DNA from: a virus
Taxonomy: Duplodnaviria; Heunggongvirae; Uroviricota; Caudoviricetes
Length of the DNA stretch: 11,576 nt
Virus record (IMG/VR): IMGVR_UViG_3300021060_000024
Coordinates: 1 to 11,576 of that record
Direction: 5' to 3' (one strand)
Every line of letters starts with the position of its first letter. Positions within the stretch are counted from its first letter, which is position 1. The notes beneath the pieces were generated by a model, which was not told the DNA's origin, searched no databases, and worked only from the letters and a program-made list of their open reading frames with translations. A program made the position numbers and the translations under genes. This document shows positions 1-11,576 of this stretch, piece after piece.

Positions 1-1
1 G

Positions 2-229
2 GAGATGCAGGCCCAGCAGGCTGCGCGCCAGGACGTGCTCGCGATGATGGCCGACCGCTTCCGCGCCGAGCAGGGCGGCGTCGCCGCCGGGGCTGACCAG
101 CCCGCCTCGGGCTCGGGCACGCGCCAGGACCGCGGCTCCTCCAACGGCGGCTCCAGCCCGCTGAACAGGCCGCGCCGTGACCAGGACGGCGATGGCGTGG
201 TCGACGAGCGCTCCAACCGCGTCCGGTGA
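2..229 (+). CDS. C-terminal end of probable portal protein (5'-truncated)
   Basis: The frame is open from the window edge to TGA at 227-229, which overlaps the GTG of the next gene (GTGA). The sequence is a short helix (QAQQAARQDVLAMMADRF) plus a low-complexity tail. Identity rests mainly on its position directly upstream of the minor capsid gene. Confidence 0.55.
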   Translation, partial: EMQAQQAARQDVLAMMADRFRAEQGGVAAGADQPASGSGTRQDRGSSNGGSSPLNRPRRDQDGDGVVDERSNRVR

Positions 230-1485
230 GCACGCCCACCCTCGACCAGGTCGCTCCGCCCAACCCCTCGGGGCTGCCCGCGAGCGCCCCGCCCACGGTG
301 GAGCAGGCCGTCACCGCCTACCAGCTCGTGCTGGCGGCGGCGGTGGCTGGCGCCATCGCTGGCGTGATCCCCGGCCTGCCGGGGATGCCGATGGTCAACC
401 CGTTCACCTGGTGGTACTCCGGCGGCTCGAACTCGCCGGCCAACCGTGCCTTCATCGCACTGGCCACCGCCCAGGAGGTGGCCGCCGCGGCCGCGCGCGA
501 GTACGTCGTGGACGTCATGGCCGCCCAGGGGCACCTGGTCGCGCTGCCGGACCTGCGCCCCCTGGCTCTGGCCGGGGCCGCCAGCGACGGGCGCGACATC
601 GACAAGCTGCTGGAGCAGCCGATCTGGTCGGCCTGGGGCGCGCGCCAGGCGGGCGCCTCACCGGACGAGGCGCGCGCCGCGGCGGCCCTGACGATGGACC
701 GCATCCTGCACACGCAGATCATGGACGCCGCGCGCGAGGCCGTGGCCACGCACCTGGCCGCCGGACGCTCGATCAACCTGGACCCCGAGGACATCGACGC
801 CTACGAGGACGACTTCGAGCGCGGCGTGCAGCAGATCATCGACCGGATCAACCGCCAGCTCGACGACGAGGATGCCGCACTGCTCGTGCAGCGCGACGCG
901 CTGCGGGTGCTGCAGGACGAGGCCGCGCGCGAGCTGATCCGCGAGGCTGAGCGCATCACGCGCCGCGCCGCGCGCGAGGAGGCACGCGAGGCCGACCGCA
1001 CCCCGCGGGTCCAGCTCGGCTGGATCAGGGTCCTGACCCCGCCGTCGTGCGCGCGCTGCGTGGCCCTGGCCGGGCGCTGGTACCGCTGGAGCGATGACTT
1101 CCAGCGCCACGTCAACTGCGACTGCCTGCAGGTGCCCGCGGCCTCGGCCAAGGAGGCCCAGCCGATGGTGACCGAGCCCGACGTGTACTTCGCCAGCCTC
1201 ACCGAGGCCGAGCAGAACAAGACCTTCGGGGTCGCGGGCGCCGAGGCCATCCGCAGCGGGGCCGACATCGCCCGGGTGGTCAACGCCTACCGCAAGGGCT
1301 CGCTGTCGACGGTGGACGGCTACACGTACACCTCCGAGGGCACCACCAAGCGCGGCTTCTACCCCAAGACCGAAGGCGGCCAGGCTGGAGCGCGTCGCGC
1401 GACGCCGACCACGATCATCCGCGCCGCGGGGGGCGACCAGACCGAGGTCGTCCGCCTGCTCAAGCGCTTCGGCTACATCCGCTGA
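226..1485 (+). CDS. Minor capsid / head morphogenesis protein (MuF/SPP1 gp7-like, actinophage type), 419 aa
   Basis: Contains GWIRVLTPPSCARCVALAGRWYRWSDDFQRHVNCDC (CxxC...HxxCxC) and a C-terminal GTTKRG...IIRAAGGDQTEVVRLLKRFGYI. Both resemble motifs I recall from actinobacterial phage minor capsid proteins. It lies between the portal and scaffold genes. Confidence 0.8.
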   Translation: MSTPTLDQVAPPNPSGLPASAPPTVEQAVTAYQLVLAAAVAGAIAGVIPGLPGMPMVNPFTWWYSGGSNSPANRAFIALATAQEVAAAAAREYVVDVMAAQGHLVALPDLRPLALAGAASDGRDIDKLLEQPIWSAWGARQAGASPDEARAAAALTMDRILHTQIMDAAREAVATHLAAGRSINLDPEDIDAYEDDFERGVQQIIDRINRQLDDEDAALLVQRDALRVLQDEAARELIREAERITRRAAREEAREADRTPRVQLGWIRVLTPPSCARCVALAGRWYRWSDDFQRHVNCDCLQVPAASAKEAQPMVTEPDVYFASLTEAEQNKTFGVAGAEAIRSGADIARVVNAYRKGSLSTVDGYTYTSEGTTKRGFYPKTEGGQAGARRATPTTIIRAAGGDQTEVVRLLKRFGYIR

Positions 1486-1544
1486 CCAGAAGTTGTCGAT
1501 CCTGCCCCACAGACCACCCCCACACCGTGTGTGCTGCTCTCGAT

Positions 1545-1592
1545 CACCAGGCGCGAGGCCCGGTGGATGCAGGGAGCGGCGCGAGGTCGCTC
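1545..1592 (+). promoter_or_regulatory. Two tandem hairpins, each capped by an identical GCGAG loop, in the scaffold gene leader
   Basis: CACCAGGC-GCGAG-GCCCGGTG (1545-1565, one A.C mismatch) and GAGCGGC-GCGAG-GTCGCTC (1574-1592, one G.U pair). The 9-mer GGCGCGAGG occurs at 1550 and 1578. The SD-rich AGGAGAGGTG follows immediately. Confidence 0.55.
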
Positions 1593-1608
1593 AGGAGAGG
1601 TGGCACTG

Positions 1609-2340
1609 ATGGAGCGCACTGACAGCGTCGAGACGATCATCGACCGGTGGTTCGCGCAGCCCTTCGGGCTCGTGGGCGCTGAGCCGGACGACGACACGGG
1701 CGGCGGTGACGGTGGCGGCGACACCGGTGCCGGTGGCAACGCCGACCAGGGCGGCCAGGGTGGTCAGGATGGCGACGGGGGAGACAACCCCGGCGACGGC
1801 CTGACCGACGCGGGTCGCCAGGCGATCGACAGGGAGCGGCAGGCCGCACAGCGTGTGCGGGACAAGCTCAAGCCCTGGAACGCCCTCGCTCGCGAGACCG
1901 GGCTCACGCTCGATCAGATCCGCGAGCGGCTGATCGGCGGCGGGACCGGCGGGGGCAACTCCGGCGGCTCGGGTGATGGTGAGCAGGTGACCAAGGCCGA
2001 CATCGAGGCCGCACGCCGCGAGGGTGCGATCGAGGCGAACGCCAGGGCCAACCAGCGCATCATCAGGGCAGAGGTCAAGGCCCTCGCGGCTGACACCTTC
2101 GCTGATCCGAGGGACGCGGCGATCTTCCTCAACCTCGACGAGTTCGAGGTGGACGAGGACGGCGAGGTCGACTCCGACGCCATCAAGAAGGCCCTCAAGG
2201 ACGTGCTCAAGGACCGGCCGTACCTGGCCAAGCGCAAGGGCACGACCCAGACCTCGGGCGGTAGTCCCGACGGGGGAGCTCGCGAGACGCCCCCCAAGCC
2301 CAAGGGCATGTCGGACCTGATCCGCAACGCCCGCCGCTGA
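1609..2340 (+). CDS. Capsid scaffolding (head assembly) protein, 243 aa
   Basis: ATG at 1609 has GAGGTG 6 nt upstream, which is preferred over the ORF-track start at 1531. Gly/Asp-rich N-terminus, LTDAGRQAIDRERQ coiled coil, FADPRDA...DEDGEVDSDAIKKALKDVLKDRPYLAK C-terminal domain, basic tail. Located immediately upstream of the major capsid gene. Confidence 0.85.
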   Translation: MERTDSVETIIDRWFAQPFGLVGAEPDDDTGGGDGGGDTGAGGNADQGGQGGQDGDGGDNPGDGLTDAGRQAIDRERQAAQRVRDKLKPWNALARETGLTLDQIRERLIGGGTGGGNSGGSGDGEQVTKADIEAARREGAIEANARANQRIIRAEVKALAADTFADPRDAAIFLNLDEFEVDEDGEVDSDAIKKALKDVLKDRPYLAKRKGTTQTSGGSPDGGARETPPKPKGMSDLIRNARR

Positions 2341-2369
2341 CCCACACTCGAACCCGAGAGGAACACACC

Positions 2370-3371
2370 GTGTCCGACTTCACCAGGGGCCTCGCCTTCG
2401 CCGGTGGCGCCTACGACAACGTCACGTCGCGCTCCGACGTCGCCGCCCTCATCCCCGAGGAGGTCTCCAAGGAGATGCTCGGGAAGGCGACGCAGGGCTC
2501 GGCCGTGCTCCAGCTCTTCCGCTCCATCCCCGTGGCCCGCGCGGCCATCCGGTTCCCGATCCTCACCGCGCTGCCCATGGCCTACTGGGTCCAGGGCGAC
2601 ACGGGCCTCAAGCAGACCACCGAGATCGGCTGGTCGAACAAGTACATGACGGTCGAGGAGATCGCCACGATCCTCCCCGTGCCGGACAACGTCATGGCCG
2701 ATGTGGACGCGGACATCTGGGACGAGGCCCAGCCGCTGATCGTCGAGGCCTTCGGCCGCGTGCTGGACCAGGCCGTCTTCTTCGGCGCCAACGCCCCCGC
2801 CTCCTTCCCGACCAACATCCTCGCGGCCGTGGCCGCGGCGGGCAACGTCGTGACCGAGGGCACCGCGACCGCCGACAAGGGCGGCTTCTTCGGTGACGTG
2901 GACGAGCTCTACTCCAAGATCGAGGACGACGGCTTCGAGGTCACCGGCTGGATCGGTGCCACCTCGGCCAAGTCCAAGCTCCGCACGGTCCGCGACACCA
3001 CCGGGCGCAAGCTCGACGAGGGTCGCGTCTCGGGCGCGCTGGACAGCCTCGACGGCAACCCGCTGGTCTACCCGATGCGCGGCCTGTGGCCGACCGCGGG
3101 CTCGGCCGGGGCTGGCTCCAAGGGCGTGCGCCTCATCGGCGGCGACTGGAGCGAGTTCGTCGTGGGTGTCCGCCAGGACATCCAGCTCAAGGTGCTGACG
3201 GAGGCCGTCATCACCGACAACACCGGCGCCATCATCTACAACCTGGCTCAGCAGGACATGACGGCGGTGCGCCTGACCTTCCGTGTCGGATGGCAGGTCA
3301 CCAACCGGATCAACAACGACCAGCCGGACGCGACCAAGCGCTACCCGGTCGGCGTCATCCAGTACGCCTGA
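2370..3371 (+). CDS. Major capsid protein (HK97 fold), 333 aa
   Basis: AALIPEEVSKEM...SAVLQLFR...PILTALPMAYWVQGDTGLKQTT...EEIATILPVP...IVEAFGRVLDQAVFFG and GDWSEFVVGVRQDI...YNLAQQDMTAVRLTFRVGW match the recalled phage major capsid family pattern. SD GAGGA upstream; codon usage is strongly biased. Confidence 0.95.
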   Translation: MSDFTRGLAFAGGAYDNVTSRSDVAALIPEEVSKEMLGKATQGSAVLQLFRSIPVARAAIRFPILTALPMAYWVQGDTGLKQTTEIGWSNKYMTVEEIATILPVPDNVMADVDADIWDEAQPLIVEAFGRVLDQAVFFGANAPASFPTNILAAVAAAGNVVTEGTATADKGGFFGDVDELYSKIEDDGFEVTGWIGATSAKSKLRTVRDTTGRKLDEGRVSGALDSLDGNPLVYPMRGLWPTAGSAGAGSKGVRLIGGDWSEFVVGVRQDIQLKVLTEAVITDNTGAIIYNLAQQDMTAVRLTFRVGWQVTNRINNDQPDATKRYPVGVIQYA

Positions 3372-3397
3372 TCCCCACGACGGACGAGGAGACCACC

Positions 3398-3760
3398 ATG
3401 GCCGAGCGCCAGAGCCGCACCGCGGCTGAGAGCACCGAGACCAAGACCGAGTCCGCGCCTGACAACGCCTCGGGGGCCTACGCGGCCGCCGGGCGCCTGC
3501 AGGCGGGGGAGGCTGGCGAGATCGTCACCACGCGCGTGCCGCGCGGCGTCGGCGAGCCGGCCGCGGACGCCAAGGCCGAGGGCTTCGAGGGCGTCGCCGC
3601 CCTGCAGGAGCACGCGGTCAAGGTGGCCAACGAGGAGGCCGAGCAGGGCTTCCGCGGCGTGCAGGTCGACAGCACCCCCAACGAGAACTACACCCTCCGT
3701 GGCGTGGGTCGCGGGCTGCCGACCCCGGAGACCCAGGTCTTCACCCCCCGCGGTCGCTGA
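3398..3760 (+). CDS. Hypothetical post-capsid protein, 120 aa (possible capsid-associated/decoration protein)
   Basis: Strong SD GAGGAG before ATG 3398; the ORF-track start at 3086 is an off-frame overlap with the capsid gene. Disordered N-terminus followed by EEAEQGFRGVQVDSTPNENYTLRGVGRGLPTPET, a motif I recall (unverified) downstream of actinobacterial prophage capsid genes. Confidence 0.75.
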   Translation: MAERQSRTAAESTETKTESAPDNASGAYAAAGRLQAGEAGEIVTTRVPRGVGEPAADAKAEGFEGVAALQEHAVKVANEEAEQGFRGVQVDSTPNENYTLRGVGRGLPTPETQVFTPRGR

Positions 3761-3767
3761 CCGCATC

Positions 3768-3805
3768 GCGTAGGCCGGGTCACCCGACGGTGGCCCGGCC
3801 TACGC
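3768..3805 (+). terminator. Strong hairpin, probable intrinsic terminator/attenuator after the capsid genes
   Basis: GCGTAGGCCGGGTCACC-cgac-GGTGGCCCGGCCTACGC is a 17-bp stem with one G.U pair and a 4-nt loop, starting 8 nt after the stop codon. There is no U-tract, which is common for actinobacterial terminators. Confidence 0.75.
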
Positions 3806-3842
3806 TCGCTCCACCAGCCTTCGACTACCTGGAGTGATCCCC

Positions 3843-4109
3843 ATGGCACTGCGCGTGTGCGACTACTGCGGCAAGATCGACGACAAGGGACGGCACGTCC
3901 ACAGCGTCGCCCCTGGCGAGATCGAGGACGCGTCCAAGAAGGTCTACAACGCGGTGCTGAACTCCGACGCCTCCAACGACGACAAGCTCGCCGCCATGGA
4001 GAGCCTCAAGAACGACACGCTGCAGATCCGGCACATCGAGTGCTGCGCGGTCGCAGGGTGCCCCACGGGGACCTGCCAGGTCCCCGATGCTGTCCCTGAC
4101 ACCCCCTGA
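3843..4109 (+). CDS. Small Cys/His-rich putative metal (Zn)-binding protein, 88 aa
   Basis: SD GGAG 8 nt before ATG 3843. Motifs CDYC...RHVH...RHIECCAVAGCPTGTC contain 6 Cys and 3 His. Confidence 0.75.
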   Translation: MALRVCDYCGKIDDKGRHVHSVAPGEIEDASKKVYNAVLNSDASNDDKLAAMESLKNDTLQIRHIECCAVAGCPTGTCQVPDAVPDTP

Positions 4110-4136
4110 CGCCCTCGCGCAGACTGGAGACTCACC

Positions 4137-4538
4137 GTGGCTCTCGACCAGACGTTCGCCAAGGGCGTCAACGACTACATCCACAACGTGGCCGCTGCGC
4201 CGACGCTGTCGAACGCGCGCAAGCTCAAGCTCTGCTCGAACACGGGCACGAGCACCACGGCGGGCACCGAGGTGGCCACCGGCGGCGGCTACACCGCGGG
4301 CGGGGTCACGGTGACCTACTCGGCCGCCACGGCCGCCACGCCGTCGGTCTCGGCCAACGCGGCCGTCTCGATCACGAACACCCCGGCCTGGGGCTCGGTC
4401 GCCTCCATCGAGCTCACCGACGCCGCGGGCACCCCCGTGCGCCTGGAGTTCGGCGCCATCACCGGCGGCCCCAAGTCGACCAACTCCGGGGACACCCTGT
4501 CGTTCTCGGCAGGCTCGATCACCTCCGCCCTGCAGTGA
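4137..4538 (+). CDS. Small beta-rich phage fibre/minor structural protein, 133 aa (resembles the 'Gp80-like' tail-fibre-annotated family)
   Basis: SD GGAGA. The pattern LKLCSNTGTSTTAGTEVATGGGYTAGGVTVTY...SANAAVSIT...WGSVASIELTDAAG...FGAI...KSTNSGDTLSFSAGSIT matches the recalled pattern GTEV.G.GY.R...N...I.F......WGTI....I.DA..G....G.L...KTV.SGDT..F.AG.L. Confidence 0.7.
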   Translation: MALDQTFAKGVNDYIHNVAAAPTLSNARKLKLCSNTGTSTTAGTEVATGGGYTAGGVTVTYSAATAATPSVSANAAVSITNTPAWGSVASIELTDAAGTPVRLEFGAITGGPKSTNSGDTLSFSAGSITSALQ

Positions 4539-4542
4539 TCCG

Positions 4543-4638
4543 GCTGGGCGCTCATCCCGCCCAGCACCCTGCGCGCGGCAAGGCGCCCCGGTCCCCTCAG
4601 CCGGGGCGCCTGCCCAGTCGGCGCAGGCCGCCGCCTGC
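4543..4638 (+). promoter_or_regulatory. Cluster of intergenic stem-loops (possible attenuator or RNA stability element)
   Basis: GCTGGGCG/CGCCCAGC (4543-4550/4558-4565); AGGCGCCCCGG/CCGGGGCGCCT (4581-4591/4601-4611); CCTGCGC/GCGCAGG (4568-4574/4621-4627); GCAGGC/GCCTGC (4623-4628/4633-4638). Confidence 0.5.
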
Positions 4639-4665
4639 TCGACCGACCAAGAAGTGAGGTGACCC

Positions 4666-5784
4666 GTGGCCGACAGCAACGTCGCCATCACGGCCGGTAG
4701 CGGCACCCCAATCGACACCCAGATCCCCGCCGACGGCAGCGACCATCGCCAGGTCGTCGTGCTGGGCTCGCCCAGCACGAACGCGCGCGTGGCCGAAGTC
4801 GACGCGAACGGCCGCCTGCTCGTGGCCGCCACTGGCGGCTCGGCGGGTGCCATCGGCCCGACGCAGATCGAGAGCACCAGCGCCAACAGCGCGCTCGCGC
4901 TCGCCGTGAGCACCGCTGGCAACGTGACCTTCTGGCTCGCCGGGACGGCCACCACCACCACGGCTGCCGTCACCGCCGGCAGCGTGACCTTCGAGCAGTC
5001 GGTCGACAACACCAACTGGTCGCCCCTGCTGTGCGTGCGCTCGGACACCGGCGCCGCGGTCTCGACCTGGTCGGGCACCCTGTCCGCGGGCGTGGGGCTG
5101 GCCTTCGAGGCCGCTCTGGAGGGCGTGGCCTTCGTGCGCGTGCGCCCCACCGCCAACGCCAGCTCCGGCACCCTGTTCGCCACCATCATCGCTGGCGGCA
5201 TGGCGTTCAGCCCGTCAATGACCCTCACCGGCATCCCCGCGGTCACCCTGGCCGCGGGCAGCTCGGCCGTCGGCACCGTGGCTGCCCCCTCGATCACCAA
5301 GGCCACCCAGGCGTCCACCGGCTTCACCGTGCAGCCGCTGCGCGACGCGGGCCGCGTGGCCGTCACCCTCAACGCCAACCAGGTGGCCCCCTCGGCGGCG
5401 ACCACCGACGCGCTGACGAGCATGACCCCGGTGCGCGACGGCGTGAACGGCACCGCGGCCACGGCCTTCGCCGTCACCTCGGGCAAGCGCTTCCGCATCC
5501 AGAGCATCACGCTGTCGATGCGTCTGACCGCGGCCACGGCCGCCTGGTCGCGCTTCGCCATCCGCTCCACCCCCAGCGGCACCACGGTGGCCACGACCTC
5601 GCCGATCGTGTGGCAGATGGAGCTCTCCAGCCAGAACGTGGCCGCCACCGGCTACGTCGACCGCTTCCATGCCGACTTCCCCGACGGCCTGGAGCTGCCC
5701 TCGGCGGCCAACTTCGCCCTGGTCAGCCAGGCCAGCGGCACCGGCGTGGCCCTGACGGTCAGCATCGTCGGCTTCGAGTACTGA
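4666..5784 (+). CDS. Putative virion spike/fibre-base protein, 372 aa, beta-rich and multi-domain
   Basis: SD GAGGTG. N-terminal MADSNVAITAGSGT.IDT...HRQVV segment, a middle jelly-roll-like domain (SVTFEQSVDNTNW...FVRVR), and a C-terminal beta domain (VTSGKRFRIQSITLS...VSIVGFEY). Ala/Thr/Ser/Gly-rich, as in phage appendage proteins. Function is inferred only. Confidence 0.6.
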   Translation: MADSNVAITAGSGTPIDTQIPADGSDHRQVVVLGSPSTNARVAEVDANGRLLVAATGGSAGAIGPTQIESTSANSALALAVSTAGNVTFWLAGTATTTTAAVTAGSVTFEQSVDNTNWSPLLCVRSDTGAAVSTWSGTLSAGVGLAFEAALEGVAFVRVRPTANASSGTLFATIIAGGMAFSPSMTLTGIPAVTLAAGSSAVGTVAAPSITKATQASTGFTVQPLRDAGRVAVTLNANQVAPSAATTDALTSMTPVRDGVNGTAATAFAVTSGKRFRIQSITLSMRLTAATAAWSRFAIRSTPSGTTVATTSPIVWQMELSSQNVAATGYVDRFHADFPDGLELPSAANFALVSQASGTGVALTVSIVGFEY

Positions 5785-5801
5785 CCCCGGAGGGCTGAGC
5801 C

Positions 5802-8800
5802 ATGACCCTCCTGCTGCTGGCCCGCTCGGCCGCACCCACCGGTGCGCGCACCAACTGGGCGCCCAACCCCTCCTTCGAGCAGTCGATCACCACTGCCTGG
5901 GAGCAGTACGGCGTCGCCGCGGGCACCCACATCCGGGTCACCGACACCAGCCAGGTCGGCGGCGCGAGCCTGCGCCTGGCCTCGGCCGACGTCGTCGACA
6001 TGGGTCAGTGGACCCGCCTGAGCCTGCCCGCGGGGACGTGGACGGCCTCGATGTGGATGCGCACCGAGGCGGTCTCGGCCAACGCCGTCTTCTGCGTGCG
6101 CGAGCCGATCAACTACGGCAGCCTCGGCACCGAGAACCACGTCACGGGCACCACGGGCTGGACGCGCTACGCCACCACGTTCACCCTGTCCCAGGCTGGC
6201 GAGGTCGACTTCCTCGTCGGCCTGGGCTCCTACGGCCCGGCCAGCTCGGGCACGGTCTGGTTCGACGCGCTGCTGGTCGAGGCCGCCAGCAGTGCCGGGC
6301 CCTACATCGACGGCTCGATCGCCAACGCCGGGCGCACCACGCGCTGGACGGGCGCGCCCCACAACTCGCGCACCACCGCCGTGGACTCGGCGCGCTCGCT
6401 GGCCCTGCTGGGCACCGACTTCTCCCAGGCGCTGGACACCTCACGCTGGGGCACCTACGGCTCCCCCGCGGTCACCGGTGGCGAGCTGCGCCTGCCGCTG
6501 GACCCGACCTACCACGGCATCCAGTCCGGCGGGAACTACAGCATCGAGGGGGACTGGCTCAGCTTCCGGGTCACCAACCCCCCGCCGGGCAACATCGCCG
6601 GGGCCAACCCCGGCCTGTACGCCCGCGCGCGCAGCGCCTCGAACGCGAACACCAGCGTGGAGGTGGCCGTCGTCGGTGACGGCGCCAACGGCGTCCGGCT
6701 CAACGTCGTCGCCCACGTCAGCGGGCAGTCCGACACCTACCCCGTCAGCATCACCTGGGACTCCACCGCTCACCGCTGGCTGCGCCTGCGCGGCGAGGGG
6801 GGCTCGATCCGCGTCGAGGCCGCCCCGGACGGGCTGGCCTGGGCGCCGATCGCCACGGTCGCCGCGCCCTGGGACCTGTACGCCACCAGCGTCGAGATCG
6901 GCGCCGGTGACTACACCGGGGACCGCGCCACCTACGCGGCCATCGACGACCTCAACCTCGCGCCGTCGACCGTGGCCACGGTCACCGCGGCCGCGGCGCT
7001 GAGCGCCACCTCGACCCTGAGCGCCAGCGCCACGCCCATCGTGCAGCCGCTGGCGGCGCTGAGCGCCACCTCCACCCTGGCGGCCGACGCGCGCGCCGCG
7101 GTCCCCGCGGCCGCGGCACTGACGAGCACCAGCACGCTGAGCACGACGGCCCCGGCCGCCACGGTGACGCCGGGCGTGGCCCTGGGCGCCACGAGCACGC
7201 TGAGCGCGGCCTCGACCAAGGCGGTCCCCGCCGCCGCGGCGCTGAGCGCCTCCTCGACCCTGGTGGCCGACGAGCGCTCCATCGTGCTGCCCAGCGCCGC
7301 GCTGGGCGCCACCAGCACCCTGGAGGCCAGCGCGGCCGCCACGGTGGCCGCGAGCGCCGACCTGGTCACCACCTCCACCCTGAGCGCCGCCCCCCTGGCC
7401 GTGCGCCAGATGGCCGCGAGCCTGGTGGCCACCTCGACTCTGGTGGCCGACGAGCGCTCCACCGTGCTGCCCTCGGCGGCGCTGTCGAGCACCTCGGCGC
7501 TGAGCGCGGCGTCGAGCAAGGCGGTCTCGGCCGCCGCGGACCTGGTCACCAGCTCGACCCTGGCGGCCGCGCCGAGCACGACGCAGCAGGCCGCGGCGGC
7601 CCTGAGCGCCACCTCGACCATGGGCGTGGCCGCCAGCGCGGCCACCGCTGGCGCTGCGGCGCTGAGCACCTCCAGCACCCTGGCCGCGGGGTCGCCGGGC
7701 GTGACGGTGCTGGCCAGCGCGGCGCTGAGCACCTCCAGCATCTTGGCGGCCGACGAGCGCTCCACCGTCCCGGCGGCCGCGGCCCTGAGCGCCACGAGCA
7801 CGCTGAGCGCGGCCTCGACCAAGGCGGTCCCCGCCGCGGCGGCCCTGAGCGCGAGCTCGGCCCTGGCGGCCGACGGCGTGCGCACCACCAGCGCCGCGGC
7901 GGCCCTGAGCGCGAGCTCGACCCTGAGTGCGTCCGCGGTCGGCGTCGTGCCGGTCGCCGCCGTGCTGGTGGCCACCTCCACCCTGGCGGCCGCGCCGATG
8001 CGCACCACCGGCGCCGCAGCGGCCCTGAGCGCCACCTCGACCCTGGGCGCCAGCGTGGCGCGCACGCAGTCGCTCAGCGCTACCCTGGTGGCGTCGTCGA
8101 GCCTGGCGGCAACTACTCAGGCGTCGGTCTCGGCCGCCGCGGACCTGTCGGGCTCCTCGACGCTGAGCACCGCCGCGGCTGCCACGGCCGCAGGGTCGGC
8201 GACGCTGGTCGCCACCTCGACGCTGACGAGCGACGCGCCGGCCGTGGACGTCGCCACCGCGGCGGCGCTCAGCTCCTCCTCGACCCTGAGCGCGGCTGCA
8301 GCCGCGGCGGTCCCCGCCGCCGCGGCGCTGAGCGCGTCCTCGGCCCTGAGCGCGAGCACCGCGCGCGCCGTCGTGGCGAGCGCCCCGCTGGCGGCATCCT
8401 CTACGCTGACCGTGGCTGGCGCCGCCGCCGTCCCGATCGCGGTCGCCCTGAACGCCACGGTCGTCACGGCTGCGAGCCCCGCAGTCCTGGTGCTCCCGGC
8501 GGCCGCGCTGGCCAGCAGCTCGACGCTGAGCACCACGCCCACCGTGGTCCGCCCGACCGCGGTGGCCCTGAGCGCCTCCAGCACCCTGGTCGCGGCGCCG
8601 GTGCGCACCACCAGCGCCGCGGCGGCCTTGAGCGCCTCCAGCACCCTGACGGCCGACGAGCGCTCCACCGTCCTGCCGTCCGCCGCCCTGACCTCGGCCA
8701 GCACGCTGACGGCCGCATCGAGCAAGGCCGTGGCGGCCGCCGCCGCGCTCAGCGCCACCAGCACGCTGTCGGCAGACGAGACCACCACGGTGGCGGCCAG

Positions 8801-10535
8801 CGCGGCGCTGACGAGCACCTCGACGACGAACGTCACCCCCGCGGGCGCCGCGAGCGCCGCGGTGGCCATGTCGGCGTCGAGCACGACGTCGGCTACCCTC
8901 GACATCGCCGTCGTCGCCAGCGCGGCGCTGGGGGCCTCCAGCGTGCTGGCGGCGGCGCCCGAAGTTGCCGTCTCGGGCGCGGCGACGCTGGCCAGCGCCT
9001 CTATGCTGAGCGTCGCCGCGGTGCGCACGCAGCCCACGGCTGCAGCGCTGGCGGCAACGTCCACCCTCGCGGCTGCGCCCACCAAGACCGTCCCCGGCGC
9101 CGCGGCGCTGAGCGCCACCTCGACCCTGAGCGCGGCCAGCACCAAGACCGTGAGCCCGGCCGCGGCGCTGAGCGCGTCCTCGACCCTGAGCGCGGCCTCG
9201 ACCAAGATGGTGCCCGCGGCAGCAGCCCTCGGTGCAGCCTCGACGCTGAGCGCCAGCCCGGCCGCGGCCGCGAGCGCCGCGGTCGCGCTGTCGTCCGCCT
9301 CGACGCTCTCCGCGACCCCTGCCGTCACCGCGCAGGCCAGTGCGACGCTGAGCGCCACGAGCACGCTGGCGGTGGGCGCCGAGCGCATCACGGCAGTCGA
9401 GGCGGCCCTGGGCGCGGCCAGCGTGATGGAGGTGGCGGCCAGCGCGAGCGTGTCCGCCGCGGCGGCGCTGGAGAGCACCTCCTTCCTGATCGCCACGACG
9501 ATCGCGACTCAGAGCGCCAGCGCGGACCTGGTGACCACCTCCACGCTGGCGGTGGCGGCCCAGCGCGTCGTGGTCACGGCCGCGGCGCTGGTGGCCTCCA
9601 GCGCCATGAACAGCGCGGCCACCAAGGCCGTCCCGACCGCGGCGGCGCTGCAGACCCGTTCCACGCTCACCACCAGCTCGCGCAAGACCGTCATCACCCG
9701 CGCGGCCCTGAGCACGGCCTCGACGCTGAGCACGACGTCGAGCAAGACGGTCCCCGCGGCCGCCGCGCTGGTGGCCTCCAGTGCTCTGGCCAGCGCCGCG
9801 CGCGCGAGCGTCGAGGCGGCCGCCGCGCTGCAGGCCATGTCCGCGCTGGGGCCGGCCGCGGCCATCGAGGCGCCGGGCGCGGTGGAGATGATCAACTCCT
9901 CCACCACCGCGGTGAGTGCGAGCGCTACCGTCCCTGTCGCCGCGGCCCTGGCCGCCGTCTCGACGCTCGGGGTCGCGGTCCAGGCCCAGGTGGCCGCCGG
10001 GACCACGCTGGCGGCCACCTCGGCTCTGGCGGTCTCGGTCGTCCGGGTCCGCCCCGCGGCCGCGGCGCTGAGCGTGAGCTCGGTCATGGGCGTGGCCGCG
10101 GTGCAGGCGGGTCAGGTCACCGTCGCCATGGTCTCGGCCTCGGTGCTCAGCGCCAGCGCCACTCGGGTCCGCCCCGCGGCCGCGGCGCTGAGCGCGGCCA
10201 GCACTCTGGGCACCGCGGTGGTGCGCGCCCGCCCGGCCGCGGCAAGCCTGAGCGCGGCCAGCACCCTGAGCGCGGCGGCGCGCGCGGCGGTCCAGGGCGC
10301 GGCGGCCCTGGCGAGCACCGCCACGATGGTGGTCGACGCCGGGCTGATCGAGGCGCGCCCGGCCACCGACCTGCAGTTCACCGCCGACCTGCGCGAGGCC
10401 TGGAACGCTGGCCCGGCCCACCTGGCCTGGATCGTGGGGTCGCCGGTCCTGGCGGACTACAACCTCCGGACCCTCCTGGCCTGGGATGCTGGTCTGCAGA
10501 CCGACCGGGAGATCGACTCCCCCTACGTGGACTAG
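5802..10535 (+). CDS. Giant repeat-containing fibre/adhesin-like virion protein, 1577 aa: CBM-like domain + ConA/lectin-like domain + 56 x 20-aa repeats + short Trp-containing C-terminus
   Basis: SD GGAGG 8 nt upstream. NWAPNPSFE...WTRYATTFT...VWFDALLVE...PYIDGS...WTGAPHNS (5853-6374) resembles carbohydrate-binding-module-like domains of phage tail proteins. DFSQALDTSRW...HRWLRLRGEGGSIRVEAAPDGLAW...IDDLN (about 6411-6959) resembles a ConA-like beta-sandwich. The repeat region is 6987-10355. Confidence 0.85.
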   Translation: MTLLLLARSAAPTGARTNWAPNPSFEQSITTAWEQYGVAAGTHIRVTDTSQVGGASLRLASADVVDMGQWTRLSLPAGTWTASMWMRTEAVSANAVFCVREPINYGSLGTENHVTGTTGWTRYATTFTLSQAGEVDFLVGLGSYGPASSGTVWFDALLVEAASSAGPYIDGSIANAGRTTRWTGAPHNSRTTAVDSARSLALLGTDFSQALDTSRWGTYGSPAVTGGELRLPLDPTYHGIQSGGNYSIEGDWLSFRVTNPPPGNIAGANPGLYARARSASNANTSVEVAVVGDGANGVRLNVVAHVSGQSDTYPVSITWDSTAHRWLRLRGEGGSIRVEAAPDGLAWAPIATVAAPWDLYATSVEIGAGDYTGDRATYAAIDDLNLAPSTVATVTAAAALSATSTLSASATPIVQPLAALSATSTLAADARAAVPAAAALTSTSTLSTTAPAATVTPGVALGATSTLSAASTKAVPAAAALSASSTLVADERSIVLPSAALGATSTLEASAAATVAASADLVTTSTLSAAPLAVRQMAASLVATSTLVADERSTVLPSAALSSTSALSAASSKAVSAAADLVTSSTLAAAPSTTQQAAAALSATSTMGVAASAATAGAAALSTSSTLAAGSPGVTVLASAALSTSSILAADERSTVPAAAALSATSTLSAASTKAVPAAAALSASSALAADGVRTTSAAAALSASSTLSASAVGVVPVAAVLVATSTLAAAPMRTTGAAAALSATSTLGASVARTQSLSATLVASSSLAATTQASVSAAADLSGSSTLSTAAAATAAGSATLVATSTLTSDAPAVDVATAAALSSSSTLSAAAAAAVPAAAALSASSALSASTARAVVASAPLAASSTLTVAGAAAVPIAVALNATVVTAASPAVLVLPAAALASSSTLSTTPTVVRPTAVALSASSTLVAAPVRTTSAAAALSASSTLTADERSTVLPSAALTSASTLTAASSKAVAAAAALSATSTLSADETTTVAASAALTSTSTTNVTPAGAASAAVAMSASSTTSATLDIAVVASAALGASSVLAAAPEVAVSGAATLASASMLSVAAVRTQPTAAALAATSTLAAAPTKTVPGAAALSATSTLSAASTKTVSPAAALSASSTLSAASTKMVPAAAALGAASTLSASPAAAASAAVALSSASTLSATPAVTAQASATLSATSTLAVGAERITAVEAALGAASVMEVAASASVSAAAALESTSFLIATTIATQSASADLVTTSTLAVAAQRVVVTAAALVASSAMNSAATKAVPTAAALQTRSTLTTSSRKTVITRAALSTASTLSTTSSKTVPAAAALVASSALASAARASVEAAAALQAMSALGPAAAIEAPGAVEMINSSTTAVSASATVPVAAALAAVSTLGVAVQAQVAAGTTLAATSALAVSVVRVRPAAAALSVSSVMGVAAVQAGQVTVAMVSASVLSASATRVRPAAAALSAASTLGTAVVRARPAAASLSAASTLSAAARAAVQGAAALASTATMVVDAGLIEARPATDLQFTADLREAWNAGPAHLAWIVGSPVLADYNLRTLLAWDAGLQTDREIDSPYVD
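6987..10355 (+). repeat. 56 tandem degenerate ~60-bp (20-codon) repeats; consensus xAAALSA[ST]STLSAxxxxxVP
   Basis: Manual parsing gives 53 units of 20 aa and 3 of 21 aa, totalling 1123 aa, which fits exactly between 6987 and 10355. Position 5 is always L or M. Position 9 is Ser in 54 of 56 units. Position 11 is mostly L/M. Confidence 0.92.
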
Positions 10536-10544
10536 GAGGCGGCC

Positions 10545-10853
10545 ATGGCGAGCGCCAAGCTCCCGTTCGGCAGCATCGAGTACCTGCACGTCCCCATCAC
10601 CCGCGACGACGACTCCGTGGCCGTGGACCTCACCGGGGTCCAGATCGAGGTGGCCATCCTGGCCGACGGCGTGGAGCCGAGTGCTCCCGGCGTGACCTGG
10701 CACCTGACGCAGACCCTGGTGAGCGAGGGGGAGGTGCTGGCGCGCTACCTGCTCGACGGCACCACGGCCCGCGGGCGCTGGAACGTGTGGGTGCGCGTGG
10801 GTGCGGGCCCGGAGCTGGCGCTGCGCAAGGCGGGGCTGCTGACGGTCACCTGA
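10545..10853 (+). CDS. Small Ig-like/BppU-N-like beta-sandwich structural protein, 102 aa
   Basis: SD AGGAGG overlaps the upstream TAG, suggesting translational coupling. IEYLHVPIT...VDLTGVQIEVAI...P....W...ARYLL......GRWNVWVRV...PE...R.AGLLTVT is an all-beta pattern I recall from small proteins adjacent to actinophage fibre genes. Confidence 0.65.
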   Translation: MASAKLPFGSIEYLHVPITRDDDSVAVDLTGVQIEVAILADGVEPSAPGVTWHLTQTLVSEGEVLARYLLDGTTARGRWNVWVRVGAGPELALRKAGLLTVT

Positions 10854-10881
10854 GTCCCACCAGGTGATCGCCCTACCCGGC

Positions 10882-10897
10882 TACCCTGCGTGACGTG
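10882..10897 (+). promoter_or_regulatory. Candidate sigma70-type -10 element (TACCCT) giving a leaderless transcript that starts at GTG 10895
   Basis: TANNNT hexamer at 10882-10887, a 7-nt spacer, then GTG. No SD is visible upstream of this gene, unlike most others in the window. No consensus -35. Confidence 0.45.
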
Positions 10898-11350
10898 GCC
10901 TACCCCGTGGACTCCGACGACATCGCAGTGCGCTGGCGCGCGCTCGATGCGGACGAGGCCGCCCTGGCCGAGGTGCTGCTGGAGGACGCCGCCGTGCTGC
11001 TGGACAACCAGCGCCCGGTCCTGGCGGCCGCCTACGCGCTCAAGCCGGGCCTGTTCCTGCCCCTGATCCGCATGGTGCTGGTGCGCGCGGTCAAGCGCGT
11101 GCTGGCCAACCCTGACGCTGTGCGTGGCCAGACCATTGGCGCGGACGGCACGGTCTCCATCAGCTACGGCCTGTCCACGACCAGCACCCAGGTGATCGAC
11201 GGCGTCTACATCGACGACGCCGACCTGGTGGACCTGGACCGTGCGCTGGCCGCGGAGGCTGGAGGCACCGGCCGTCGCCGGGTGCGCTCCGTCCGGCTCC
11301 TCGCCTACGACGAGCCGGTGAACCGCATGTCCATCCTGCCCCTGCCGTGA
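10895..11350 (+). CDS. Head-to-tail adaptor (Gp19/Gp15/Gp42-like connector protein), 151 aa
   Basis: MAYPVDSDDIAVRWRALDADEAALAEVLLEDAAVLL...MVLVRAVKRVLANPDAVRGQTIG...SISY...IDDADLVDL matches the recalled actinophage adaptor pattern (D+..RWR.L...E...A..LL.DA...V...V.RVL.NP.G...ETIG.YSY). Confidence 0.85.
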   Translation: MAYPVDSDDIAVRWRALDADEAALAEVLLEDAAVLLDNQRPVLAAAYALKPGLFLPLIRMVLVRAVKRVLANPDAVRGQTIGADGTVSISYGLSTTSTQVIDGVYIDDADLVDLDRALAAEAGGTGRRRVRSVRLLAYDEPVNRMSILPLP

Positions 11351-11364
11351 CCGAGGAGTCCGAC

Positions 11365-11576
11365 GTGTCCGAGATCCTGCAGCCCGTCAGCGACCTGTCG
11401 GTGCGGCGGCTCGCCGCGCCCGCCGCTCGCCCCGCCATCACCACGGTGGCCGCCGCCGTGGAGGCCATGAGCCCGCGGCGCTACCGCGCGTTCGGCAACC
11501 GCAAGGTGGCCGACTTCAAGCGCTCCAACTTCGAGGCCATCGCTCGCTCGGTGGCCGACATGGCCAAGTTCGAGTC
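11365..11576 (+). CDS. Hypothetical protein (3'-truncated): MSEILQPVSDLSVRRLAAPAARPAITTVAAAVEAMSPRRYRAFGNRKVADFKRSNFEAIARSVADMAKFE...
   Basis: SD GAGGAG (11353-11358) lies 6 nt before GTG 11365. An alternative in-frame GTG at 11347 overlaps the upstream TGA. The frame is open to the window end with GC-biased third positions. Not in the ORF track because it has no stop in the window. Confidence 0.7.
   Translation, partial: MSEILQPVSDLSVRRLAAPAARPAITTVAAAVEAMSPRRYRAFGNRKVADFKRSNFEAIARSVADMAKFE

Follow-up and report, generated by a model that had tools for sequence, protein, structure and literature searches.

Electron cryomicroscopy (cryo-EM) first revealed fibres in which small dimeric proteins are strung along a single extended chain in work from 2023 to 2026; these came from a few phages with Gram-negative hosts and carried 2 to 11 dimers each. 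Here we compare with these rope-and-bead fibres a locus in an 11,576-nt stretch of viral DNA ("the window," i.e., the whole stretch that was analysed; IMG/VR record IMGVR_UViG_3300021060_000024, positions 1 to 11,576), which encodes a 1577-aa protein with a long tandem-repeat array and, upstream of it, a 133-aa protein. The source phage is uncultured; the window is the first 11.6 kb of its 75.6-kb metagenomic contig (70–79% GC), from which the phage is read as a high-GC actinobacterial siphophage. We consider it likely that the 1577-aa protein is the rope of a bead-chain (also termed chain-like, Fiber-1, or whisker) virion fibre, with up to 56 docking sites, a lectin-like cap, a C-terminal anchor, and a length of ~150 nm.

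The described systems differ in how the rope is encoded and in how many beads it carries. In the Escherichia myophage Bas63 (PDB 9MT4), the rope is an extension at the N-terminus of the collar protein; two whisker dimers, placed end to end, surround it "like beads on a string," and as it passes through their grooves it completes the incomplete sandwich of each monomer (PMC12609058). Fibre I of the Ralstonia podophage GP4 (PDB 8JOU) has a rope with a gene of its own, on which five gp80 dimers sit and which interlocks with an immunoglobulin (Ig)-like collar, the fibre being docked on the Ig-like fibre-tail adaptor gp77 (PMC13730344, PMC12609058, PMC11445570). Others have described the chain-like fibre of A1002, in which a single rope chain, over at most ~333 of its residues and ~300 Å, forms augmented β-sheets with 11 serial Gp80-like dimers, its N-terminal end being distal and capped by an Ig-like domain and its C-terminal part anchored (PMC13730344)—values that work out to at most ~30 rope residues and ~27 Å per dimer. 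The Anabaena myophage A-1(L) also has a ~100-nm neck fibre of many small beads with a distal carbohydrate-binding module (CBM) (PMC10966104); its beads, however, are gp81 trimers of another family stacked head to tail without a rope, and the likeness is one of analogy rather than homology.

In the window, the 1577-aa open reading frame (ORF) has a GC fraction of 0.96 at codon position 3, which identifies 5802–10535 on the plus strand as the coding frame. Its residues 395–1517 form 56 tandem units, 53 of them 20 aa long and three 21 aa long (beginning at residues 435, 616, and 797), with the consensus PAAAALSATSTLSAASTKAV. Self-identity at a lag of 20 residues is 0.407, compared with 0.180 ± 0.010 in shuffled sequences (2000 shuffles; z = 22; shuffle maximum 0.211), and secondary peaks stand at lags 6 and 14. 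Numbering each unit from its Pro, the conserved positions are A4 (48/56 units), L6 (53/56, and Met in three more), S10 (54/56), and L12 (47/56, and Met in five more), and the L6/S10/L12 motif is retained in all 56 units. Codons of both the TCN and the AGY type encode Ser at position 10, as expected from protein-level selection and not from recent copying of the DNA. The composition is equally distinctive (A 373, S 196, T 151, L 111, V 107, G 30, a single F, and no W, Y, C, or H). A first-pass annotation, made from the sequence alone, had reported the 1123-aa array of 56 repeats, the absence of these residues with sparse Gly, and near-invariant L5, S9, and L11 (our L6, S10, and L12), all of which our counts reproduce. 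It had also described a strict two-residue alternation. This holds in the core of the unit, where small or hydrophobic residues occupy positions 2, 4, 6, 8, 12, 14, and 20 (with Ser at 10), but it is not strict, as positions 3 and 5 are Ala-rich too and positions 15–19 form a variable linker.

The unit is also pseudo-palindromic. When the column compositions of the 56 units are mirrored, the best centre falls at position 9.0 (0.37, vs. 0.29 for the next), pairing A4 with A14, L6 with L12, S7 with T11, and A8 with S10, and this symmetry accounts for the secondary peaks at lags 6 and 14. The near-invariant Leu, Ser, and Leu would in turn be explained if the pseudo-palindromic peptide serves a two-fold dimer.

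Database searches with the repeat protein itself were uninformative. The 1577-aa protein matched nothing in Pfam or PHROGs at E ≤ 0.1, a feature search of the Atlas with the repeats returned unnamed clusters only, and the sole match of the repeat profile among PDB sequences was a low-complexity LIM-domain protein, which we read as compositional. Two known repeat classes were considered and rejected. A pentapeptide repeat or Pfam β-solenoid does not fit the Leu–Leu spacing of 6 and 14 rather than 5, nor the lack of a Pfam or PHROGs match. A collagen-like or coiled-coil fibre, which the first-pass annotation had likewise set aside, does not fit a Gly content of 2.7% and the absence of any peak at lag 3 or 7.

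The 133-aa protein is a relative of the Gp80/whisker beads of GP4, Bas63, and Sf14. It matches the Pfam family PF23140 Gp80 ("Podophage GP4 fiber I protein gp80") at E 3.4e-5, and PF23140 is present in most of its 57 homologues. Against PDB sequences, a family profile of 47 sequences finds 8JOU chain a (GP4 gp80) over its full length at E 9.4e-4; a phmmer search with the single 133-aa sequence gave spurious RecA-fusion matches there, and 8JOU was reached by the family profile only. Structure points the same way. The AlphaFold2 (AF2) model of the protein (predicted local distance difference test, pLDDT, 78) has an N-terminal helix at residues 5–15 followed by strands, and when Foldseek was run with it against 350,542 chains, GP4 fibre I, the Sf14 neck, and the Bas63 connector supplied seven of the eight best matches. 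A second structural alignment (VIA) gave Z 7.6 with 8jou_a (root-mean-square deviation, rmsd, 4.9; 123 residues aligned), Z 7.3 with 9c39_K of the Sf14 neck (rmsd 3.5; 98 aligned), and Z 7.2 with 9mt4_K of the Bas63 whisker (rmsd 3.5; 98 aligned), whereas the next unrelated match stood at Z 4.8. The 75.6-kb genome holds one bead gene.

The repeat is widespread. It has no Pfam model, and its profile, searched against 1.84 billion proteins, retrieves 2267 cluster representatives at E ≤ 1e-3 and 899 at E ≤ 1e-10 (clusters built at 50% identity). The homologues are metagenomic proteins in which the same 20-aa unit stands beside varied other domains; in nine high-scoring members Pfam domains are nearly absent, the one exception being DUF4082. 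Among 157 repeat proteins compared (14 word-search homologues plus the best-scoring profile matches), the median protein has an N-terminal flank of 374 aa, a C-terminal flank of 50 aa, and ~21 repeats, and the C-terminal tail is shorter than 150 aa in 138. With 56 repeats, the protein studied here has the second highest count in this set. In some family members (e.g., P0011) the same motif recurs every 18 residues rather than every 20, which shows that the linker of the unit tolerates shortening with its core intact.

Genes with the 20-aa repeat show linkage to bead genes in metagenomes. For all four repeat homologues whose contigs were examined, a PF23140 gene lies zero to one gene upstream—in the window, one gene separates the two—and one of the four cassettes lies directly 3′ of the major capsid gene. 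The reverse test started from 79 IMG/VR loci with bead relatives, 61 of which have at least 3 kb downstream. An ORF was counted as periodic when its strongest self-identity lag, chosen freely between 12 and 30, was 20 or 21. Such an ORF lies on the same strand within 3.3 kb downstream in 43 of the 61 loci, and upstream in two more loci. As a control, seven of 562 upstream ORFs (≥250 aa) are periodic, but five of these come from the two loci with upstream ropes, which leaves a background of 2/557. Two viral contigs have rope-like genes upstream of the bead gene (L073:1603-7509 and L082:6056-9295), so the gene order of the module is not fixed; L073 contains two rope-like genes in tandem and a second, weaker bead-profile match.

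A different arrangement occurs in a prophage of Intrasporangium mesophilum (L003:10423-13713), where a 1096-aa chain joins a DUF4082/F5_F8_type_C (discoidin) cap, six rope repeats, and a C-terminal region of ~650 aa. The bead gene lies directly upstream, and the cassette belongs to the tail module, where a 1066-aa ORF in tape-measure position precedes it by two genes. This locus suggests that rope and anchor can be parts of one polypeptide, as they are in A1002 and Bas63.

How a bead would meet a repeat was modelled with two copies of the 133-aa protein and three consensus-like repeats (rope residues 1078–1137), each with its own alignment. The complex of bead dimer and repeats scored 0.82, compared with 0.17 for the best of three controls; contacts agree between runs to at least 94%, and the partner pLDDT is at least 61. 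On the rope, the modelled contacts fall on residues 15 and 17–41 of the three-repeat piece (i.e., one repeat plus four residues), and on the bead they involve residues 1–3 and the C-terminal strands, including the family-invariant G106, G118-D119-T120, and L132. Specifically, bead residues 128/130 touch rope residues 24/26 in copy 1 and 34/32 in copy 2. The contacts are thus mirrored, and each monomer would read one of two half-units related by reflection about rope residue 29 (position 9 of the unit). The dyad of the complex model and the mirror centre of the column compositions, which come from independent analyses, coincide at this position. From the model, the 133-aa protein is predicted to dimerise and clamp the rope, with one dimer docking on one repeat. 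The first-pass annotation had suggested, as its alternative, that each unit could donate a strand to one copy of a small partner such as this protein, with repeat number setting filament length. Such a partnership is favoured by the bead family, the genomic linkage, and the complex model, but the partner is predicted to bind as a dimer and not as a single copy.

The flanks of the array were assigned from weaker leads. Rope residues 22–135 have a CBM_4_9 match in Pfam that falls below the cut-off (E 0.036), and the feature matches of the N-terminal cap in the Atlas are to CBM_4_9 and concanavalin A (ConA)-like clusters (0.87), which we treat as a lead only. Residues 195–385 show weak tblastn similarity (2e-4) to a minor tail protein from a Streptomyces phage and to a glycoside hydrolase; matches of the 1577-aa protein in tblastn were weak throughout and confined to this second N-terminal domain, which is found again in other rope proteins. 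The N-terminal 395 residues have no sequence relative in PDB. We read the cap as probably two jelly-roll-like, glycan-binding domains and, by analogy with the solved ropes, predict that it is the distal tip. At the other end, the C-terminal 60 residues are lineage-specific, with a sequence that is not conserved between loci, and are predicted to be the virion anchor on the precedent of Bas63, A1002, and GP4.

In the fibre that we propose, a single extended chain would bear 56 near-identical 20-residue docking sites, each a pseudo-palindrome of the form A4-x-L6-x-x-[T/S]9-S10-x-L12-x-A14. A two-fold dimer of the 133-aa Gp80-family protein would clamp each site, the first half of the unit threading the open β-sandwich of one monomer and the mirrored second half that of the other. 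Up to 56 dimers, or 112 subunits, could then occupy each rope. Repeat number would thereby set bead number, and bead number the length of the fibre, which scales from the ~27 Å per dimer of A1002 to ~56 × 2.7 nm = 150 nm. At its distal end this rope would present the CBM/ConA-like domains of its N-terminus, probably as a tip that binds glycans, and at the other end it would be held to the virion by its last 60 residues. Attachment is probably at the neck, given that the cassette is bounded by genes for the capsid and the head–tail adaptor and is followed by one for a small Ig-like protein. The array, the family of the bead, and the genomic linkage are observations; the interface of dimer and repeat is a prediction of the model, and we infer the stoichiometry, length, tip function, and attachment site. 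More broadly, the repeat unit may be a general docking code for two-fold Gp80-type dimers, and the repeat proteins a large unrecognised class of phage adhesion organelles—a tentative proposal, in which doubt still slightly outweighs belief.

On the features tested here, by sequence and by model, this system appears to belong with GP4 fibre I, the Bas63 whiskers, and the A1002 chain-like fibres. The architecture has already been characterised in these three, an outcome of the kind that the first-pass annotation had itself listed as counting against its idea, and here one that counts against novelty of the fold. GP4 fibre I is comparable in having beads of the same family, a separate adjacent rope gene, and a small Ig-like protein nearby (the last a lead only). 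However, it carries five dimers in a podophage of Gram-negative bacteria, compared with up to 56 in an actinobacterial siphophage, and the present rope differs in bearing ~390 aa of lectin-like N-terminal domains and in being accompanied by a Cys-rich partner gene. A candidate for its rope is gp79 (L083:17948-18925), a 325-aa "virion-associated" protein whose gene adjoins gp80 and whose best self-identity lag is 20. Over roughly residues 40–245 it repeats a Gly-rich unit of ~20 residues, within which there is a half-period of 10 residues; no sequence similarity to the Ala/Ser/Thr repeat described here is detectable. If gp79 is that rope, its periodicity suggests a periodic docking code in the solved GP4 rope too.

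The A1002 fibre shares with our proposed rope an N-distal globular cap, a C-terminal anchor, and ~20–30 rope residues per dimer, and its polarity and that of Bas63 (an N-terminal cap or free end and a C-terminal anchor) match that of the protein here. In contrast, A1002 has 11 dimers of two bead types, whereas the present system has one bead gene and 56 sites, and the A1002 rope is fused to a nozzle domain where ours has only a 60-aa C-terminal tail; the word "repeat" is absent from the text of the A1002 paper (PMC13730344). The whiskers of Bas63 (PDB 9MT4) and the Sf14 neck (PDB 9C39) are neck-attached and are among the three best structural matches of the bead, but there the collar protein itself supplies the rope as a short extension at its N-terminus, with two dimers, no lectin cap, and no long repeat array. 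What is new here is the number of sites (56 vs. 2–11), the actinobacterial siphophage setting, a sequence-recognisable Ala/Ser/Thr repeat, the lectin-like cap, and the Cys-rich partner gene.

Other explanations of the array deserve weight in proportion to the evidence on each. A fibre of the same construction could be loaded more sparsely, with one dimer for every two repeats (28 dimers) or with some repeats empty. The candidate GP4 rope lends this some support, as gp79 has ~9–10 units of 20 aa for the 10 gp80 chains (five dimers) in 8JOU. However, when given three repeats the model set both monomers in one 25-residue stretch, with equivalent contacts mirrored and 10 residues apart, on a unit that is itself pseudo-palindromic about position 9. 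In addition, A1002 fits its 11 dimers on at most ~333 rope residues (i.e., ≤30 per dimer), and all 56 units keep the L6/S10/L12 motif, so we regard sparser loading as unlikely. The self-standing intertwined or homo-oligomeric β-fibre favoured by the first-pass annotation seems to us more doubtful still. In such a fibre, two or three repeat regions would intertwine without beads, and the 133-aa protein would form a different fibre or serve as an adaptor. Trimeric β-structures are common among phage fibres, small or hydrophobic residues do alternate with polar ones in the unit core, and the AF2 monomer of eight repeats has short strands, two per unit, and no helices. But this monomer model is of low confidence (pLDDT 49) and leaves the idea unsupported, the array offers no aromatic or large-core residues except two Leu per 20 aa, and homologous solved fibres use a single rope chain. 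A homo-oligomer would also leave the genomic coupling to the bead gene and the controlled complex model unexplained.

Two further readings dispense with a fibre of beads altogether. With 31% Ser+Thr, 33% Ala, low complexity, and low predicted order when modelled alone, the array might be taken for a flexible, possibly O-glycosylated spacer that projects the N-terminal lectin-like domains without any partner. We judge this very improbable, because an exact 20-residue register over 56 units, with near-invariant Leu and Ser in different codon families, is not expected of a disordered linker, and because the same motif is conserved across the 2267 clusters and linked to bead genes. A long repetitive protein in a siphophage structural operon also invites comparison with a tail tape measure or another internal tail ruler, an explanation to which we give next to no credence. 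Its gene lies between those for the major capsid protein and head–tail adaptor Ad1, a separate 1924-aa ORF occupies the tape-measure position ~10 kb downstream (genome 21108–26879), and the repeat protein is predicted to be β or extended rather than helical and carries globular lectin-like domains.

Several observations count against the rope-and-bead reading itself. On the bead side, the PF23140 match of the 133-aa protein falls below the gathering score (24.6 vs. 27 bits), and the Foldseek E-values of its model are weak (0.16–1.6). On the rope side, the repeat profile recovers no solved rope among PDB sequences, and gp79, the candidate for the published GP4 rope, is absent from the PDB chain sequences searched. 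Sixteen of the 61 bead loci are without a periodic neighbour. The complex score expresses the model's confidence only; the score mark was reached by 58 of 80 solved complexes and by 2 of 110 mismatched pairs, counts that are only a rough guide here because our alignments differ from those of the calibration. As 8JOU, 9MT4, and 9C39 are solved structures, the pass may also reflect likeness to them rather than binding by this copy. The neck as attachment site is read from gene order, and the cassettes of L001 and L003 lie in or after the tail module. Finally, the phage is uncultured and is known here only from metagenomic sequence.

The cassette as a whole (Table 1) lies between the capsid and connector (head–tail adaptor) genes. 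The small Cys/His-rich protein encoded ahead of the bead has homologues in L001 (blastp 1e-14) and L002 (1e-12), encoded there directly 5′ of the bead. An iterative search recovered its family at 79 of 82 bead loci, and in 73 its gene immediately precedes the bead gene on the same strand; for this clade of Gp80-like genes it is thus an almost constant partner. The protein lacks a Pfam match and carries the motif CxxC ... HxH ... HxxCCxxxxCxxxxC; our guess is that it is a Zn-binding assembly factor or a minor component. The texts consulted on the GP4, Bas63, and A1002 fibres mention no Cys-rich partner. The 372-aa protein has no relative in Pfam, PHROGs, PDB, or the 82 related loci, and its slot is variable, being filled by unrelated genes in L001 (150 aa) and L002 (209 aa) and absent in other loci; it may be a lineage-specific second fibre component or adaptor. 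Downstream of the rope gene, the Atlas model of the 102-aa protein (predicted template modelling score, pTM, 0.69) has template modelling (TM) scores of 0.6–0.8 with the Ig-like sandwich clusters TIG, BppU_N, LtfC, and YtkA, which makes it a candidate collar or fibre adaptor. It has no sequence homologues or PDB relatives, and no relation to GP4 gp77 or the Bas63 collar was detectable; in L001, a 103-aa gene after the rope gene is weakly similar to it (E 0.04).

Table 1. Features of the window (nucleotide positions count from its first letter).
Feature	Position	Strand	Remarks
Head-morphogenesis protein	226–1485	+	
Scaffold	1531–2340	+	
HK97-type major capsid protein	2370–3371	+	
Small Cys/His-rich protein, 88 aa	3843–4109	+	ATG 3843, GGAG 8 nt upstream
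133-aa bead protein, Gp80 / Fiber-1 / whisker family	4137–4538	+	
372-aa cassette protein	4666–5784	+	
1577-aa rope protein (likely), whole ORF	5802–10535	+	
Rope N-terminal cap, residues 1–394	5802–6983	+	probably two jelly-roll-like domains
56-repeat array, residues 395–1517	6984–10352	+	consensus PAAAALSATSTLSAASTKAV
Rope C-terminal 60 residues and stop	10353–10535	+	predicted virion anchor
102-aa β-sandwich protein	10545–10853	+	between rope gene and Ad1 gene
Head–tail adaptor Ad1	10895–11350	+	phrog_137, E 2.2e-13

Other features of the locus may be noted. A megablast search with the whole window found nothing among 50,697 phage records. At 3770–3803, a strong inverted repeat (GTAGGCCGGG ... 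CCCGGCCTAC), with extra pairing inside and no T-run, separates the fibre cassette from a 120-aa ORF 3′ of the capsid gene. As it lacks a T-run it was not called by the terminator scan, and it may mark the cassette boundary as an attenuator or a site of processing. The minus strand of the repeat gene holds a 1420-aa ORF (6441–10703, minus) and several shorter open frames, which we regard as by-products of 77% GC and the repeat rather than as genes, given the codon-position-3 GC of the plus frame. The 1924-aa ORF downstream has a tandem period of its own, of 22 residues (self-identity 0.52), which differs from the 20-aa unit of the rope.

If the rope-and-bead reading is true, this architecture extends to actinobacterial siphophages, with ropes five times longer than any solved. 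Docking sites would be recognisable by sequence, so that thousands of giant phage proteins now called "hypothetical" could be annotated; fibre length would become a countable genomic trait that can be compared with the thickness of host capsules or cell walls; and a peptide unit that recruits one dimer would be a modular scaffold for structural work and protein engineering. Should the broader docking-code proposal also hold, the 2267 clusters would each carry 5 to ~60 sites, with length set digitally by repeat number and the universal Cys-rich partner acting as an assembly factor. The phage described here would then be among those with the longest fibres, with ~112 bead subunits per rope, at least 150 nm of length, and a lectin tip, and its bead protein might exceed the capsid protein in amount per virion.

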